The position numbers and the translations under genes are program-made. The notes under the pieces are model-generated. The model was not told the origin of the DNA. It did not search any database and saw nothing but the letters and a program-made list of their open reading frames with translations. Of a DNA stretch of 37,906 bases, positions 27,210 to 33,064 are shown piece by piece; positions within the stretch are counted from its first letter, which is position 1; each line of letters opens with the position of its first letter. Source of the DNA: a virus; the UHGV virus genome UHGV-0206542, one strand, 5' to 3'.

Positions 27210-27788
27210 TCAATGCATAATCGGTGCTTCTGGCACACCTTCGATCTGGATGTGTTCGATAAAGCTGTCATGGAGGAGGTTAAACCCCTCCCGGCCAAGT
27301 GCTGATAACCTGAACCCAAATTCTTCGTCAGCAATAACCATGTCCTGATACATCCGCAGCGCCAGCTGCTGGCCAACCTCTGGCCCATATTTCTCGATTG
27401 CCCCCAGCTCAATATGGTTGGCGAGTGCAAAGCGTTCAGGTCCCGGATAGACGCTAATGGCGCCATGCTTGCTGGAATAGATAACAGCAGTATCAACACC
27501 GCCATTATCATTCGGAACGTCGACAGTTCCGTTTTTCTCCAGCTCCTCAGTGATGAACACGGCAGCCAGTAACCAGCGCCAGAGGATCAACTCTTTTTCG
27601 ATATTGAGCGTGATCCAGTTGCTTTCTACCGCTTCCATGATGCAGGCCAGAATTTCCATTCCATCGGCAAGGTGTTTGTCATAGCGACCGTTATCCAGCA
27701 GGCGAATAGCAGCGGAGTAGCCAATCACCCGGTTTCCAGACCGGATCCCTGTTGAGGTTGGTTCCGGGTTAAGCATGTTCTGAAGCAT
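27210..27788 (-). CDS. hypothetical early protein
   Basis: 192-aa ORF, coupled overlaps with both neighbours. Confidence 0.5.
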   Translation of the reverse strand: MLQNMLNPEPTSTGIRSGNRVIGYSAAIRLLDNGRYDKHLADGMEILACIMEAVESNWITLNIEKELILWRWLLAAVFITEELEKNGTVDVPNDNGGVDTAVIYSSKHGAISVYPGPERFALANHIELGAIEKYGPEVGQQLALRMYQDMVIADEEFGFRLSALGREGFNLLHDSFIEHIQIEGVPEAPIMH

Positions 27789-28209
27789 TGCGCACCTCTG
27801 CTGGTTTACAGGCCTGCAGTTCTTCGCGCTCTTTCACGTAGCGGTCGTGCATGGCATCCCACTTTTCGCACCACTTTTGCATTTCTCTTTTGCGGGCGAG
27901 GATGCGACGCAGCCGGCGAACGGTACGCTGGTGGGCGTTGAAATATTCCGTGGTGACGGCGCCACGTTGCCAGCTACTCAGTTCTGGATTCAGTGGATGA
28001 ATTACCTGCACGTCCGGATAACGCTGCTTGAAACCAGAACGCCCAAAAGCTCGGGAGGTCATGAAGAACGCCAGGTAACGAATTGCGGTATCCCGGCTGA
28101 AGCACCGCTTCATGCGTCCGTGGCGGATCGCGGCGAACAGATCACCAACTGGCGTTGGGTGCTTTTGCAACGCCAGGTCAATGGCGCTGACAGTTCTGTT
28201 GTCAATCAT
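27769..28209 (-). CDS. hypothetical early protein
   Basis: 146-aa ORF, basic. Confidence 0.45.
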   Translation of the reverse strand: MIDNRTVSAIDLALQKHPTPVGDLFAAIRHGRMKRCFSRDTAIRYLAFFMTSRAFGRSGFKQRYPDVQVIHPLNPELSSWQRGAVTTEYFNAHQRTVRRLRRILARKREMQKWCEKWDAMHDRYVKEREELQACKPAEVRNASEHA

Positions 28210-28424
28210 TTGTCTTTCTCCCGGTTATAGGTTTCATGACTCATAACTTCCCAGTTCCGGCCATCGTCTTTCGATAACAGGCGCCAGCGTGGGTTAACCT
28301 TCAGGCTGAGGTAGCCGGTGCGGCGCATTCGCCGCGGGAATATCCGCCGGCGCCGATACCGCAGAAGGACCTGCAGCGCCTGTAGGTGAACCCTCTCAGG
28401 AATTCGTATCGCTGTCAGTGCCAC
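28206..28424 (-). CDS. hypothetical small protein
   Basis: 72-aa Arg-rich ORF, overlapping start/stop with neighbours. Weak call. Confidence 0.3.
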   Translation of the reverse strand: MALTAIRIPERVHLQALQVLLRYRRRRIFPRRMRRTGYLSLKVNPRWRLLSKDDGRNWEVMSHETYNREKDK

Positions 28425-28650
28425 CAGCTACCTCCTCAAATCTCAGTTCCATTTCGCGCGCCATTTCGATAAACGTGGCCAGTGAGCAAATGTGCTCGTC
28501 GTCGAACAGCTTGCGGTCGCATGTCACCCTCCCGTTCTCGATGTGCACGACTACCCGCCCGGTAAAATCAGGGAGGACATGCAGATCCACGTTCAACACG
28601 GGGCGGGGGATCAGCACACCCTGATAGAGCATTGTTTGCTGGTTATTCAT
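28396..28650 (-). CDS. hypothetical small protein
   Basis: 84-aa ORF with 8-nt overlap to the upstream gene. Confidence 0.4.
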   Translation of the reverse strand: MNNQQTMLYQGVLIPRPVLNVDLHVLPDFTGRVVVHIENGRVTCDRKLFDDEHICSLATFIEMAREMELRFEEVAGGTDSDTNS

Positions 28651-29008
28651 TGCCGGACTCCGCAGTAACTGGTTTCTGCTTTTTGACGAACTCCACCAGT
28701 TCAGAAATAAGCTCGTCGATTAACTCTTTCCCGCTTTCTGTGAGGAATTCGCCGCTGCCATTAACATCAACAGAGTTGCTGTAAATTCCCTTAAGAGCGT
28801 TCACACCTTCTACATTTCCGTACTCACCGAGCGCTAGTCGCTCGAATTTCCGCAACAATCCATCAAGAAGAATCTCAGTTAATTCGATAGTGCTAATCCC
28901 ACCCTTGTTGAGCTTAATGACAAGTAAGCTACTGCCAGTCTTTCGCTGGTGGCGTAACAAGGCCGCTTTTAAAATTCTGCGTCTATAAGTGCTAATTAAA
29001 TTATTCAC
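28643..29008 (-). CDS. hypothetical protein (AT-rich early-left block)
   Basis: 121-aa ORF. Markedly lower GC than the phage backbone. Confidence 0.5.
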   Translation of the reverse strand: MNNLISTYRRRILKAALLRHQRKTGSSLLVIKLNKGGISTIELTEILLDGLLRKFERLALGEYGNVEGVNALKGIYSNSVDVNGSGEFLTESGKELIDELISELVEFVKKQKPVTAESGNE

Positions 29009-29010
29009 TT

Positions 29011-29109
29011 TTATTTACCGTAAGCCTTTTTTAAATAAAGCATGGCTATAGACCAATAACCAAGTGAGACAAATAACTGAGCTGTTTTAAATGCTTGTTT
29101 ATTAATCAT
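29011..29109 (-). CDS. possible 32-aa single-TM peptide
   Basis: MINKQAFKTAQLFVSLGYWSIAMLYLKKAYGK. Stop lies 2 nt before the next gene's start. Weak RBS. Below the ORF-track size cutoff. Confidence 0.2.
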   Translation of the reverse strand: MINKQAFKTAQLFVSLGYWSIAMLYLKKAYGK

Positions 29110-29177
29110 GGTTACCATTAATTTGATTGCAGAAATACCAGGAATTACTCCTGTAATTAAAATTACTAATTAATTTT

Positions 29178-29375
29178 TTAAGCCGGGTTTTTAGACTCTT
29201 CCTCAATAAGGAAAGCTGCAACTGGCCCAATCAGATCAGCCAAAAGTGAGGCGACAGATTCCACGTCTGAGTCGGTCAGTTTATGAGGGTAGTTCTCAAG
29301 CATCCTCGCCACAATCTCAGCCTGGTAAGCCTTTGATGCTGCTTTTTGCAAAGTGATATCAGACATTTTTAGCAT
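29178..29375 (-). CDS. hypothetical 65-aa acidic protein
   Basis: Overlaps the upstream gene by 17 nt. AT-rich. Confidence 0.45.
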   Translation of the reverse strand: MLKMSDITLQKAASKAYQAEIVARMLENYPHKLTDSDVESVASLLADLIGPVAAFLIEEESKNPA

Positions 29376-29673
29376 CCTTATAACCGGAAGAATATGTTGC
29401 TGAGTTAGCTATTTTATTTGTTGCTATTGCTAATTCAGCGAGGTCTGCAACAACACTAGAAAGCATCATTATTTTATCTTTATTTAATCTCTTTTCTTCT
29501 GCCTCACTCATTATGCTAACCCCTATATGATTGATGGCTTGCAAAATAGATATTGTTTTTGTATCGCAGTCAGTAGCAATTTTGTCGAAATCAATGTTTT
29601 GACATTGCTCTTTATCGGAAGAGAAACGGTAATCAGGTATAGTTACCAGTTGAAAAAATTTCTCTGTACTCAT
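29359..29673 (-). CDS. hypothetical ~104-aa protein, first gene after the CI-proximal operator-like element
   Basis: Start MSTEKFF with RBS ggagtg. The track ORF begins at an upstream TTG. AT-rich. Confidence 0.5.
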   Translation of the reverse strand: MSTEKFFQLVTIPDYRFSSDKEQCQNIDFDKIATDCDTKTISILQAINHIGVSIMSEAEEKRLNKDKIMMLSSVVADLAELAIATNKIANSATYSSGYKDAKNV

Positions 29674-29841
29674 CTTTTGCACTCCATTAATCCGCCAATG
29701 CATAAACAATACATAACGTATTAAATAAGATCAATACAAAACGGAGTATTTTGGTGTATTATTTTACATCGTTTTGTTTTTCAAGGTTTTTTAGTTTCTA
29801 GCGGGGTATTGGAGGCAAAAAAAGCCGCTTTCGCGGCCAAT

Positions 29842-30510
29842 TTATGGGAGGTTGGTGATTTTTGCGTCGACTACAACCCCGATAATACGGCAGTTGCCAT
29901 TGATAGGGATTATTGGGTATTGGGGGTTAAGGGGTTTGAGAAATCTTTGACCGGCATCGATAACAAGCTTTTTGAATGTGGCTTCATTGTCACCGTCAAG
30001 TTTCGCTACAACCAATTTTCCGTTGATTGCTTCCACTTGGGGATCGACAAGTATCGCCATCCCTTCCGGTATGCTCAGCCCTGCTGGTGATGTCATGGAA
30101 TCGCCTCTGACGTCTAACCAGAACGAATCCTCAGAGCATTCAACGGTGGTGTCATACCATCGATCTATCGCTCTACGGTGATACGGTTCTACAGCTTCCA
30201 TCCAATCTCCAGCGCTAACCCAGCTTATAACAGGGTAGCTTCCCTTGGATTCGTTAATGCTATTAAATCTTACATTGTGATCGGCTCTGGAGTCGCTGAT
30301 AGTGCCGTCAGCATTTACTACGAAGCCGGGCATTTTCAATATGTTAAAAATCTTAGCTATAACCTCTAAGTTCGGTTCACGTCTGGCGTTTAACCAATGG
30401 CCCAGCCCGCCCTGCGTTATGCCGAGCGCCTCTGCCAGCTGTTCTTGAGTCATGCCGACTTCTTTCATCCTGGTTTTGGCCAGGTCCTGCCATCTCTGTT
30501 TCATAACCAT
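29842..30510 (-). CDS. cI: CI-like repressor (HTH_XRE + S24 LexA-like peptidase domain)
   Basis: N-terminal HTH (MTQEQLAEALGITQGGLGHWLN). C-terminal VRGDSMTSPAG...LVVAKLDG carries the S24 Ser/Lys dyad. Divergent from the cro-like gene. Confidence 0.85.
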   Translation of the reverse strand: MVMKQRWQDLAKTRMKEVGMTQEQLAEALGITQGGLGHWLNARREPNLEVIAKIFNILKMPGFVVNADGTISDSRADHNVRFNSINESKGSYPVISWVSAGDWMEAVEPYHRRAIDRWYDTTVECSEDSFWLDVRGDSMTSPAGLSIPEGMAILVDPQVEAINGKLVVAKLDGDNEATFKKLVIDAGQRFLKPLNPQYPIIPINGNCRIIGVVVDAKITNLP

Positions 30511-30607
30511 GATTATTACATTCCGTATTTACTGTTCAACTTCCATTTTGTATTATTCTTGTGAGCGTGTATAGTACGATATGTATTATTTATGCGAGAC
30601 TAATCGA
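30511..30607. promoter_or_regulatory. cI/cro divergent promoter-operator region (OR-like)
   Basis: 97-bp AT-rich gap between divergent repressor genes. Promoter-like TTGTAT-16-TATAGT directed at cro. Repeated tgtattatt motifs. A related ~45-nt element lies in inverted orientation just downstream of cI (29695-29745). Confidence 0.5.
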
Positions 30608-30829
30608 ATGAGTGGAATCAAGAGCCTTAGACGCAAAGCAAAGGTAACTCAGGGAGAGCTGGCCGCGCTGATTGATAGCTCCCAGGGGGCCGTTAGCCAC
30701 TACGAAACAGGAAGAAGGATTCCTGATGTTGCAGTCGGGAAGCGGATCGTCAGCGCGTTTAAACAGCTTGGCCTGAATACAAGTTTGGACGAGGTATTTT
30801 CAGATGATGTTGCACGGGATGAGGCCTGA
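30608..30829 (+). CDS. cro: Cro-like HTH (XRE family) regulator
   Basis: KVTQGELAALIDSSQGAVSHYETGRRIP helix-turn-helix, 74 aa, divergent from cI. The start could alternatively be the ATG at 30581. Confidence 0.65.
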   Translation: MSGIKSLRRKAKVTQGELAALIDSSQGAVSHYETGRRIPDVAVGKRIVSAFKQLGLNTSLDEVFSDDVARDEA

Positions 30830-31097
30830 CCACGGTTTGCTCCCTTCTGTGTACGCATCTGCAGATGAAGAATGGATCAAGCAGCAGTTACTGAGCCTGG
30901 CGCCAGCAGCACGACAAAAAGCTATTCAGCGTTATGCAGCTGTGTATCAGGAATCGTTCGAAGCCGAGCCCGTTCCATACCGCAAGGAGAACCGGGCAAG
31001 GCATGAAGCCAATGTGAGGCTTCGCAGATTCGTGGATGCACACGGACGCGCACTGCAGGGGTATACGACCCAGCCACCCCTTGCCGGATCACGGTAA
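30804..31097 (+). CDS. hypothetical protein in the cII position
   Basis: 97-aa ORF overlapping the cro 3' end. No recognised motif. Confidence 0.4.
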   Translation: MMLHGMRPDHGLLPSVYASADEEWIKQQLLSLAPAARQKAIQRYAAVYQESFEAEPVPYRKENRARHEANVRLRRFVDAHGRALQGYTTQPPLAGSR

Positions 31098-31182
31098 CGA
31101 TCCGTTGGTCACCGGGCTTAAAGGTGCCGGGTGATAGCAGGGTAACTACTTTGACTGTTTTTTATCCACTGTATCAGCTTGC

Positions 31183-31293
31183 GAGTACATGGGATGGGGA
31201 AGAGGGAAGAGGGGGGTTTGGGGGGAGTTGGGAGTTAGGGCAGGAATAGCGTCCTTTTCCAACAGACAGGTACATGGGGTAGGTAGGTACCGA
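31183..31293. repeat. G-rich iteron-like tract upstream of the replication genes
   Basis: gtacatgggatggggaagagggaagaggggggtttggggggagttgggagttaggg: at least 7 GGG+ runs on the plus strand. Direct repeat gtacatggg x2. ggtaggtaggtacc. Confidence 0.5.
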
Positions 31294-31405: not shown

Positions 31406-33064
31406 ATGCTTAACATCACACCGAACTTTGCACAGGAACGCGGGCTTAACATGCTGCGGCGCACCTGGAAGGCGCACGATTCCTTCATGGTCTATGCACC
31501 GACCGGAAGCGGAAAAACAGGCCTGGCTGCGTTTATCGCTTCCGGCCTGGTCAGTCGTGGTATGCGTGTTCTGTTTGTCGCCCCGTATACGATCCTGATT
31601 AACCAGACCGCCCAGCGCTTTACAGAATACGGGTTGCCGAAAGACCAGATTAGTTTTATCTGGCGTGATCACCCGAACTACGACCCTAATCTGCTGATCC
31701 AGATTGCGAGCGCTGACACGCTAATCAGGCGTGAATTTCCACAAAACATCGATCTGCTTATTGTCGATGAGGCGCACCTGCGTAAACGCCGTATCCTGAA
31801 AGAAATCGAACGGATCACAGCGGAGAAAAAAGCGAAGGTTATCGGTTTATCTGGTACCCCTTTTGCGCCGTTCCTTGGCCATTACTATCAACACCTGATT
31901 AAGCCAACGACGATTGGCGAATTGATCCAGCGTGGTGACCTCAGTAAGTACGAATTTTTCGCCCCAACAAAACCAGATCTTAGCGGGGTAGAAACAAAGC
32001 CATCTATGGAGTTCGGTACTGATTACGACGAGTCCCAACTGGCGGAAATCATGTGCGGTTCTGACCTGGTGGGCGATATCGTCGATAACTGGCTTCGTCA
32101 TGGTCGTGACCTTCCTACGGTGGCGTTCTGCGTTAACAAGGCTCACGCAAACTTTGTAACCATGCAGTTTAACAAGGCGGGTATTAATGCTGAGGTCATG
32201 GTCGCAGAAACACCCCACGAAGAACGGCAGGTGATGATTCATCGCTTCGAGACTGGCGCCACAAAAATAATCGTCAGTGTTGGTGTTTTGGTAGCCGGTT
32301 TTGATAGCGATGTTCGCTGCATTATCTACGCCCGGCCGACAAAGAGTGAAATCCGCTGGTTGCAGGCGCTTGGCCGCGGACTGCGAACTGCACCCGGGAA
32401 AGATGCCTGCCTGATTTTTGATCACAGTGGCACTGTGCATCGCCTCGGCTTCCCTGACTCCATCGAATACGACGATCTGCCATCCCAAAACGACGGCATG
32501 AAAGCGGCCGCTGCCGGCGCAACTAAGGAACGCGAAGAAAAACTTCCGAAAGAATGCCCCGAATGTCATTTCATGAAGCCATCCGGAGTTTACGTCTGCC
32601 CAAAGTGCGGATTTAAACCGCTCGTTGGTCAGGACGTCGAGACTGACGGCACCCGCAACATCAAAAAAATGAGCAAGCACGAAACGGTTTATACCAAAAG
32701 CGACAAGCAGTCCTGGTGGAGTCAGATCAAGTTTTACCAGCGTCATCGTGCGGCGCAGGGGAAACCTGTCAGCGATGGCTGGTGTGCTCATACCTTTCAG
32801 GAGAAATTCGGCGAATGGCCCAACGGCTTAAGCGACTTTCCAATGGAGATCACACCGGAGGTCAGCAATCACATCAAACACAAACTTATCAAATTTGCTA
32901 AACGCCGCGAACGCCTGCAGCAGATGGGGAGGAAACCTGACCAGGATCTATTTCCACCTCAGAGCGCCAGTATCAAATATGAGCCTCCTGAGGGCAGCGA
33001 TGGGCAATTAATTATCGAAGCAAAACGAAAGTTTCAGGAAAACGTAAACAGAGTGAGTCAGTGA
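31406..33064 (+). CDS. SF2 DEAD/DEAH-box replicative helicase with C-terminal zinc ribbon
   Basis: Walker A APTGSGKT. DEAH box LLIVDEAHL. Motif VI-like QALGRGLR. CPECH...CPKCG zinc ribbon. Confidence 0.85.
   Translation: MLNITPNFAQERGLNMLRRTWKAHDSFMVYAPTGSGKTGLAAFIASGLVSRGMRVLFVAPYTILINQTAQRFTEYGLPKDQISFIWRDHPNYDPNLLIQIASADTLIRREFPQNIDLLIVDEAHLRKRRILKEIERITAEKKAKVIGLSGTPFAPFLGHYYQHLIKPTTIGELIQRGDLSKYEFFAPTKPDLSGVETKPSMEFGTDYDESQLAEIMCGSDLVGDIVDNWLRHGRDLPTVAFCVNKAHANFVTMQFNKAGINAEVMVAETPHEERQVMIHRFETGATKIIVSVGVLVAGFDSDVRCIIYARPTKSEIRWLQALGRGLRTAPGKDACLIFDHSGTVHRLGFPDSIEYDDLPSQNDGMKAAAAGATKEREEKLPKECPECHFMKPSGVYVCPKCGFKPLVGQDVETDGTRNIKKMSKHETVYTKSDKQSWWSQIKFYQRHRAAQGKPVSDGWCAHTFQEKFGEWPNGLSDFPMEITPEVSNHIKHKLIKFAKRRERLQQMGRKPDQDLFPPQSASIKYEPPEGSDGQLIIEAKRKFQENVNRVSQ

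Follow-up and report, generated by a model that had tools for sequence, protein, structure and literature searches.

The first genes transcribed from the leftward early promoter (pL) of well-studied lambdoid phages include host-takeover and counter-defence factors, and several early-left accessory proteins of lambda and P22 act by binding host proteins, e.g. RecBCD, FtsZ, or FtsH. Here, we analyzed a stretch of viral DNA of 37,906 nucleotides (UHGV virus genome UHGV-0206542; the whole stretch is called the window) with a focus on a block of four small genes next to its cI-type repressor gene, i.e. g104, g62, a 35-aa open reading frame (ORF35), and g121. The immunity region of the window has several features in common with that of lambda and P22: a repressor with helix-turn-helix (HTH) and S24 peptidase domains is transcribed leftward, a cro-like HTH gene is oriented divergently to it, related operator-like elements (OL and OR) flank the repressor gene in inverted orientation, a leftward early operon extends toward xis and int, and there is a Q-type late antiterminator. 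The layout as such is ordinary, textbook lambdoid. According to our favoured reading, the block is the promoter-proximal end of a CI-repressed early-left (pL-type) operon in a lambdoid siphophage of the Fels-1/KPP5665-2 type, and its first products would have a host-binding role. Taken as a whole, we give this reading an even chance of being right; its regulatory part is held with high confidence, its biochemical part with low confidence.

The placement of the block was derived from a comparison across related loci. From seven Klebsiella phages, Fels-1, 7 genome contigs, and 80 IMG/VR contigs, a set of 88 loci encoding a g104 homologue was compiled, and clustering of their repressors at 80% identity yielded 14 clusters, which were used as immunity types. 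In essentially all 88 loci, a repressor ORF of 220–260 aa with HTH and S24 domains is located directly upstream of g104 on the same strand, separated from it by a gap of 150–215 nt which in most loci contains a terminator. Directly downstream of g104 (in L074 across an insertion, see below), g62 is present in 87 loci, only L009 having no detectable copy. Since g104 is fixed behind repressor and gap across 14 repressor types and is followed by g62 almost without exception, both genes are assigned to the first part of the pL operon. The original prediction had offered two placements; the evidence favours the one as very first pL genes and not the one as lysogen-expressed cargo read through from cI. 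Two insertions of about 1.2–1.5 kb, both probably insertion sequence elements, were also observed: one of about 1.2 kb between g104 and g62 in L074 (3800–5065), where g62 still follows, and one between cI and g104 in L023 (1965–3501). They indicate that broken coupling or lost operator proximity is tolerated in prophages.

Divergence of the genes was compared by Spearman correlation of pairwise identities among representatives of the 14 immunity types. Identity of g104 was correlated with that of g62 (rho 0.66) and not with that of the repressor (rho −0.12), and ORF35 was correlated with g121 (rho 0.74), while g121 gave only 0.28 with g104 and 0.31 with g62. In the phages CharmingMan, LMessi, and ST16-OXA48phi5.3, which have other immunity types, ORF35, g121, g84, the ParE-like gene, and g146 are kept and unrelated small genes replace g104 and g62. 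Megablast similarity of the window to these phages ends at 29007, which places g121 in the leftward backbone and not in the block linked to immunity. All ORFs of the four-gene block originally proposed exist and are conserved, but g121 is part of the neighbouring mosaic module. As this slot is filled by unrelated genes in sibling phages, g104 and g62 would be dispensable accessories. Together they form a cassette at the head of the predicted operon that is widespread but can be replaced, whereas ORF35 is near-universal; ORF35 and g121 may form a second, separately inherited early unit.

The operator-like elements on both sides of cI (Table 1) bear on the regulatory part. The 15-mer ATGTATTRTTTATGC occurs exactly twice in 37.9 kb, once in each element and on opposite strands. 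Between the two cI-flanking spacers, the longest common match with at most one mismatch is 16 nt in inverted orientation, a length reached in 0 of 2000 dinucleotide-preserving shuffles of both spacers, in which the longest match was 15 nt. The repeat search also gave two pairs of inverted arms, one of 34 nt (79%) and one of 19 nt (84%). A near-palindrome of the form A(A/G)TAC-N5-GTATT is present in both elements, and each has a second TTGTATT block upstream, at a distance of 25 nt (OL) or 33 nt (OR). Within this phage lineage, several other immunity types have a different, type-specific sequence found on either side of their repressor gene, e.g. ATTAATACTATAGTA for the L007 type and a palindrome, ATACTTTTAGTATT, for the L011 type; in L050 and L068, 17–19 nt are common to both sides. 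The claim that inverted, nearly identical elements flanking cI resemble OL and OR is thus borne out by the near-palindrome in each element and by the type-specific repeats elsewhere, and the interpretation of the two elements as an OL/OR pair of predicted operators is supported. Between the cI terminator and OL, a third copy of TGTATTATTT was noticed at 29754–29763 (plus strand), which points the other way from both copies in OL and could represent either a third half-site of the operator or a piece of a divergent site.

An intrinsic terminator begins within 4 nt of the end of cI and acts on leftward transcripts only, and an equivalent hairpin with T-run, with stem sequences differing between lineages, is found in the same gap of most related loci. 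Read-through of the block from cI, as originally considered, is disfavoured by this strong terminator. The finding also bears on an alternative in which the block, like rexAB, sieB, or bstA, would be cargo expressed in the lysogen for superinfection exclusion or defence and transcribed by cI read-through or from a promoter of its own. Such genes have a known hotspot next to cI, as exemplified by BstA, which is encoded downstream of cI and presumably shares the cI promoter (PMC8585504), and the AT-rich DNA of the block is moron-like. In the window, however, the genes lie beyond the operator element, and the slot between cI and OL holds only the terminator; moreover, a promoter scan found no promoter inside the block, no convincing PADLOC match was obtained, and the low GC content is an old, family-wide property (see below). 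We therefore regard the cargo explanation as quite improbable, and the genes of the block are probably silent in the lysogen.

The window region 28400–30600 is 98.5% identical over its full length to KPP5665-2, a temperate Klebsiella siphophage, and 97.6% identical to six further Klebsiella phages or prophages. KPP5665-2 was obtained by mitomycin C induction and has a GC content of 51.6% (PMC5658490). In the related phage P18-100, a Q antiterminator, a signal-arrest-release endolysin, and a P4-type primase are annotated; the Q antiterminator of this relative and the inducibility of KPP5665-2 by mitomycin C point to a temperate phage with lambdoid logic. The sharp drop in GC content that had drawn attention to the block is real, with values of 0.32–0.39 per 400-nt window across 28800–29999. 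The backbone value of about 55% assumed for the comparison was too high, as the whole window has 50.4% and only the genes just left of the block reach 54–57%. The low GC content of g104 (33–40%) is kept in all 14 immunity types and is therefore an old property of the gene rather than a sign of recent acquisition in this phage.

As the first gene past OL, g104 starts about 25 nt after the operator element and has a GGAG Shine-Dalgarno sequence 8 nt upstream. Its homologues form 65 clusters, all enterobacterial, with the invariant residues D35-C36-D37, K39, S42, E80, N86, and K87. An AlphaFold2 model (mean predicted local distance difference test score, pLDDT, 80.5) shows a helical hairpin with helices 29–59 and 65–102. 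In the KPP5665-2 annotation the protein is labelled 'recombination-related exonuclease', which was unsupported by every search performed here, and its sole PADLOC match, to a type I specificity subunit, was weak (E 0.001, 62 of 468 positions) and was taken as chance. For g62, most homologues and the GenBank annotation use Met4 (29366) as start. The 17-nt overlap of the two genes in the original prediction exists for the ATG at 29375; with the Met4 start the overlap is probably 8 nt (ATGTCTGA), with an AAGGA Shine-Dalgarno sequence 8 nt upstream. At the level of these predicted signals, translational coupling of g62 to g104 through ATGTCTGA is shown. The g62 family is small: at 50% clustering, 1.8 billion proteins contain only about 34 representatives, which are all 60–90 aa long and have almost no invariant residues. 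A weak relative of g62 is the phrog_8959 gene, which Fels-1 and other phages carry between ORF35 and g121.

ORF35 follows g62 after a spacer of 59 nt and is found with 48–100% identity in nearly all related loci, including those without g104 and g62. The family pattern A..TA.L...xG.....A..(Y/F)L.KAYG(K/R) is of a helix-Gly-helix type similar to tetratricopeptide repeats. The peptide had been proposed to contain a single transmembrane segment, an idea that did not hold: D, E, K, or R residues occur inside the supposed membrane stretch in 27 of 33 distinct homologue cores, and the highest Kyte-Doolittle mean over 17 residues, 1.36 in the window copy and 0.98 as the median of the family, is below transmembrane levels. 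ORF35 rather looks like a single amphipathic helix-Gly-helix hairpin. Homologues of g121 form more than 200 clusters; the AlphaFold2 model contains four helices and is too poor for a fold search (pLDDT only 54.8). The N-terminus of g121 carries an invariant Arg/Lys-rich segment, YRRRILKAALLRHQRKTGS, which is reminiscent of an RNA-binding arginine-rich motif.

Conservation of all four ORFs as proteins in other phages and prophages argues that they are real genes. Searches of Pfam, NCBIfam, PADLOC, and PDB sequences, also with family profiles, returned no convincing relative of g104, g62, ORF35, or g121, in agreement with the initial observation that none of them has a recognizable motif, and their PHROG matches are families of unknown function. 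A domain for DNA binding, enzymatic activity, toxicity, or defence was not recognized either. Homology to N, Kil, or CIII, which would have spoken for ordinary early functions, was not detected: in an hhalign comparison of the family profiles with 33 lambda and P22 proteins, including N, gp24, Ral, SieB, Kil, CIII, Gam, Abc1/2, and Ea proteins, the top probability was 5.6%. The genes are thus not recognizable ordinary lambdoid functions, and nothing positive toward defence was obtained either. An Rfam scan of 27.5–32 kb revealed no relevant RNA, and our literature search on the four families found no functional study. All four families are uncharacterized; in public phage genomes, their sequences are already listed as hypothetical proteins.

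Two small, overlapping, and tightly co-inherited genes with a short hydrophobic-looking peptide downstream may suggest a toxin-antitoxin or abortive-infection module made up of g104 and g62, with or without the peptide, and a toxin-antitoxin-like function had indeed been considered initially. This explanation is highly improbable. No toxin or antitoxin family was matched in Pfam, NCBIfam, or PADLOC, both proteins are acidic and helical and neither has a DNA-binding antitoxin fold, g62 is found alone elsewhere and co-occurrence is thus not obligate, and the peptide is not a conserved transmembrane segment. Furthermore, a recognizable pair of this kind, g84 and the ParE_like gene, is already present next door.

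A more serious alternative, which we nevertheless regard as unlikely, is that g104 and g62 regulate the phage programme itself, as a non-canonical antitermination or processivity factor in the N position, as a CIII-like stabilizer of a CII-like protein, or as a feed-forward lytic lock. The pair does occupy the classical N position as first pL genes, but both proteins are acidic (pI 5.0 and 4.5), g104 is predicted to be folded, and it has no Arg-rich motif. The presence of a cII-like gene and of Q in the phage would fit such a role, and YRRRILKAALLRHQRKTGS in g121 could be taken as RNA-binding; however, the leaders contain neither a repeated boxB-like hairpin nor a boxA, a strong minus-strand terminator that would have to be overridden was not found between OL and int, and the hhalign probabilities against N, gp24, and CIII do not exceed 5.6%. 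Similarly, retention behind 14 immunity types speaks for a core function more than for an optional one, whereas the pair is missing from the sibling phages and diverges independently of the repressor and operator region. An N-like function was also considered for g121 on the basis of its Arg-rich N-terminus and a hairpin with 5-bp stem and 5-nt loop at 29139–29153; it was rejected as the hairpin occurs only once, the leaders lack a boxA, and no internal terminator was found.

In the favoured reading of the block as head of the early-left operon, CI would silence pL in the lysogen via the predicted operators, and g104 and g62 would be among the first products after induction or infection. The g104 protein, whose predicted helical hairpin carries an invariant polar patch, and the small, acidic, helical g62 protein would bind a host protein that is conserved in Enterobacteriaceae, possibly as a hetero-complex, and act in early host takeover or counter-defence. 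Several observations weigh against this reading. A consensus promoter scan gave no site above threshold in the OL spacer, so that the pL promoter is presumed here, and TTGATC-17-TATTGT, the best candidate picked by hand, fits at only 8 of 12 positions and overlaps the palindrome. Three fold searches with g104 returned generic helical hairpins only and no specific match. The family-wide low GC content fits long residence in the lineage better than a recently acquired accessory. Also, g62 homologues with 48–58% identity occur without g104 nearby in IMG/VR contigs (L095–L099), either in an early operon with an AntA antirepressor and DUF4222 or two genes upstream of a D5_N/Pox_D5 primase, the latter possibly in a P4-like element or satellite. 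The g62 family is thus wider than the g104-g62 cassette, and a hetero-complex with g104 is not obligatory. Two candidates from these contigs were rejected: a 101-aa protein beside a distant g62 homologue in L098 as distant g104 relative (hhalign probability 0.5%), and a second g62 paralogue in L095 (2.5%). A host-binding, non-essential early factor is our best guess from position, coupling, size, charge, fold, and replaceability, and it is a guess.

Table 1. Features of the immunity region and adjacent early-left genes in the window (coordinates from the first nucleotide of the window)
Feature	Position	Strand	GC content	Basis and remarks
Rha-family regulatory protein, 241 aa	26488–27213	minus		PF09669 2.4e-07
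192-aa protein	27210–27788	minus		GenBank label '2-polyprenylphenol hydrolase'; no Pfam support
g84 and 72-aa ParE_like protein	28206–28650	minus		PF24732 2.6e-20; phrog_340 (g84)
g121, 121 aa	28643–29008	minus	43.7%	phrog_1737 9.1e-56; GTG start 2 nt past ORF35 stop
ORF35, 35 aa	29011–29118	minus	30.6%	weak phrog_2180 match; 32 aa if from 29109
g62-ORF35 spacer			22%	
g62, 62 aa, pI 4.5	29178–29366	minus	46.6%	phrog_1478 4.9e-35; 65 aa if from 29375
g104, 104 aa, pI 5.0	29359–29673 (ORF open to 29709)	minus	33.7% (third codon positions 26.7%)	phrog_2583 2.4e-64
cI-g104 spacer			35%	
OL-like operator element	29699–29745	minus		repeat shared with cI-cro spacer
OL-like operator and presumed pL region	29699–29764	minus		repeats; promoter inferred only
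15-mer ATGTATTRTTTATGC, OL copy	29700–29714	minus		
Near-palindrome AATACGTTATGTATT in OL	29708–29722			
TTGTATTGAT in OL	29730–29739			
cI intrinsic terminator	29816–29838	minus		terminator scan; GGCCGC-GAAA-GCGGCU and U7; RNA fold, hairpin of −11.3 kcal/mol
cI-type repressor, 222 aa	29842–30510	minus		PF01381 (HTH_3) 9.1e-12 and PF00717 (Peptidase_S24) 8.5e-30; phrog_4
OR-like element in cI-cro spacer	30546–30595	plus		contains TATAGT −10-like hexamer
Near-palindrome AGTACGATATGTATT in OR	30573–30587			
15-mer ATGTATTRTTTATGC, OR copy	30581–30595	plus		
cro start	30608			HTH_3 (Pfam match); diverges from cI

Further genes of the early-left operon and its surroundings are included in Table 1. 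The 84-aa g84 protein (pI 4.7) is encoded with a 29-nt overlap to the ParE_like protein (pI 11.6), and the two represent the only recognizable toxin-antitoxin-like pair in the early-left operon, just left of the block. Its partners shuffle among related loci: ParE is missing beside g84 in Fels-1, and in several loci ParE is present but no g84 was detectable. On the other side of the immunity region, a G-rich tract, ggggaagagggaagaggggggtttggggggagttgggagttagggcagg, is located at about 31180–31245 (plus strand) in the gap of about 300 nt between the cII-like gene (30804–31097) and the helicase gene (31406–33064); in the KPP5665-2 annotation a doubtful 'helicase protein' ORF spans this tract.

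The block can thus be described by a defined regulatory position, i.e. as what would be the first genes switched on at induction in a common prophage family of Klebsiella, Salmonella, Enterobacter, and Citrobacter, and the readings as toxin-antitoxin module, membrane toxin, or lysogenic cargo are set aside. As g104 and g62 are conserved behind at least 14 immunity types, they are a sensible and cheap target for functional study; the interest is modest, that of a well-delimited target for anti-defence or host-takeover screens. A bolder version, to which we assign only a small chance, is that g104 and g62 form an unrecognized, widely conserved immediate-early two-protein module of enterobacterial temperate phages that neutralizes a conserved host function (such as a nuclease or defence sensor), the early-left genes examined having yielded no function of the Gam, Abc, or Ral type in these phages, and that g62-like proteins belong to a wider family of small early inhibitors also present in P4-like satellites.

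Compared with lambda and P22, the window differs in that a terminator and no gene of the rexAB, sieB, or bstA type is located between cI and OL, that no N homologue or nut site is detectable, and that neither a Gam/Bet/Exo nor an Erf/Abc recombination module was detected among the early-left genes examined. Also, the predicted operators have a half-site of their own, A(A/G)TAC-N5-GTATT, with block spacings of 25 nt (OL) and 33 nt (OR). The closest described arrangement is that of the Salmonella prophage Fels-1 (NC_010391; STM0898.7n, STM0898.6n), which has the same order of repressor, g104, g62, ORF35, g121, g84, and g146. Identities to the window proteins are 51% for g104, 47% for g62, 58% for ORF35, which is unannotated in Fels-1, and 44% for g121, and the annotated genes are all hypothetical. 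Fels-1 differs by a repressor without detectable similarity to the window cI, by the additional phrog_8959 gene between ORF35 and g121, and by the lack of a ParE-like gene. Its g104 homologue (STM0898.7n, L004 3957–4508) is over-annotated as an ORF of 183 aa overlapping the repressor gene; as only the last ~100 residues are homologous, translation probably begins near L004 4203. The ORF35 homologue of Fels-1 is located at L004 4952–5059. With the helical-hairpin heterodimers of the WXG100/Esx type there is a structural analogy only. In comparison to the early-left accessories of lambda and P22 (Ral, Kil, CIII, Gam, Abc1/Abc2, Ea), the block proteins have neither sequence or profile similarity (hhalign at most 5.6%) nor a specific structural match; the likeness is one of kind, as they are small and mostly helical and, like these accessories, would be non-essential and expressed from pL soon after derepression.

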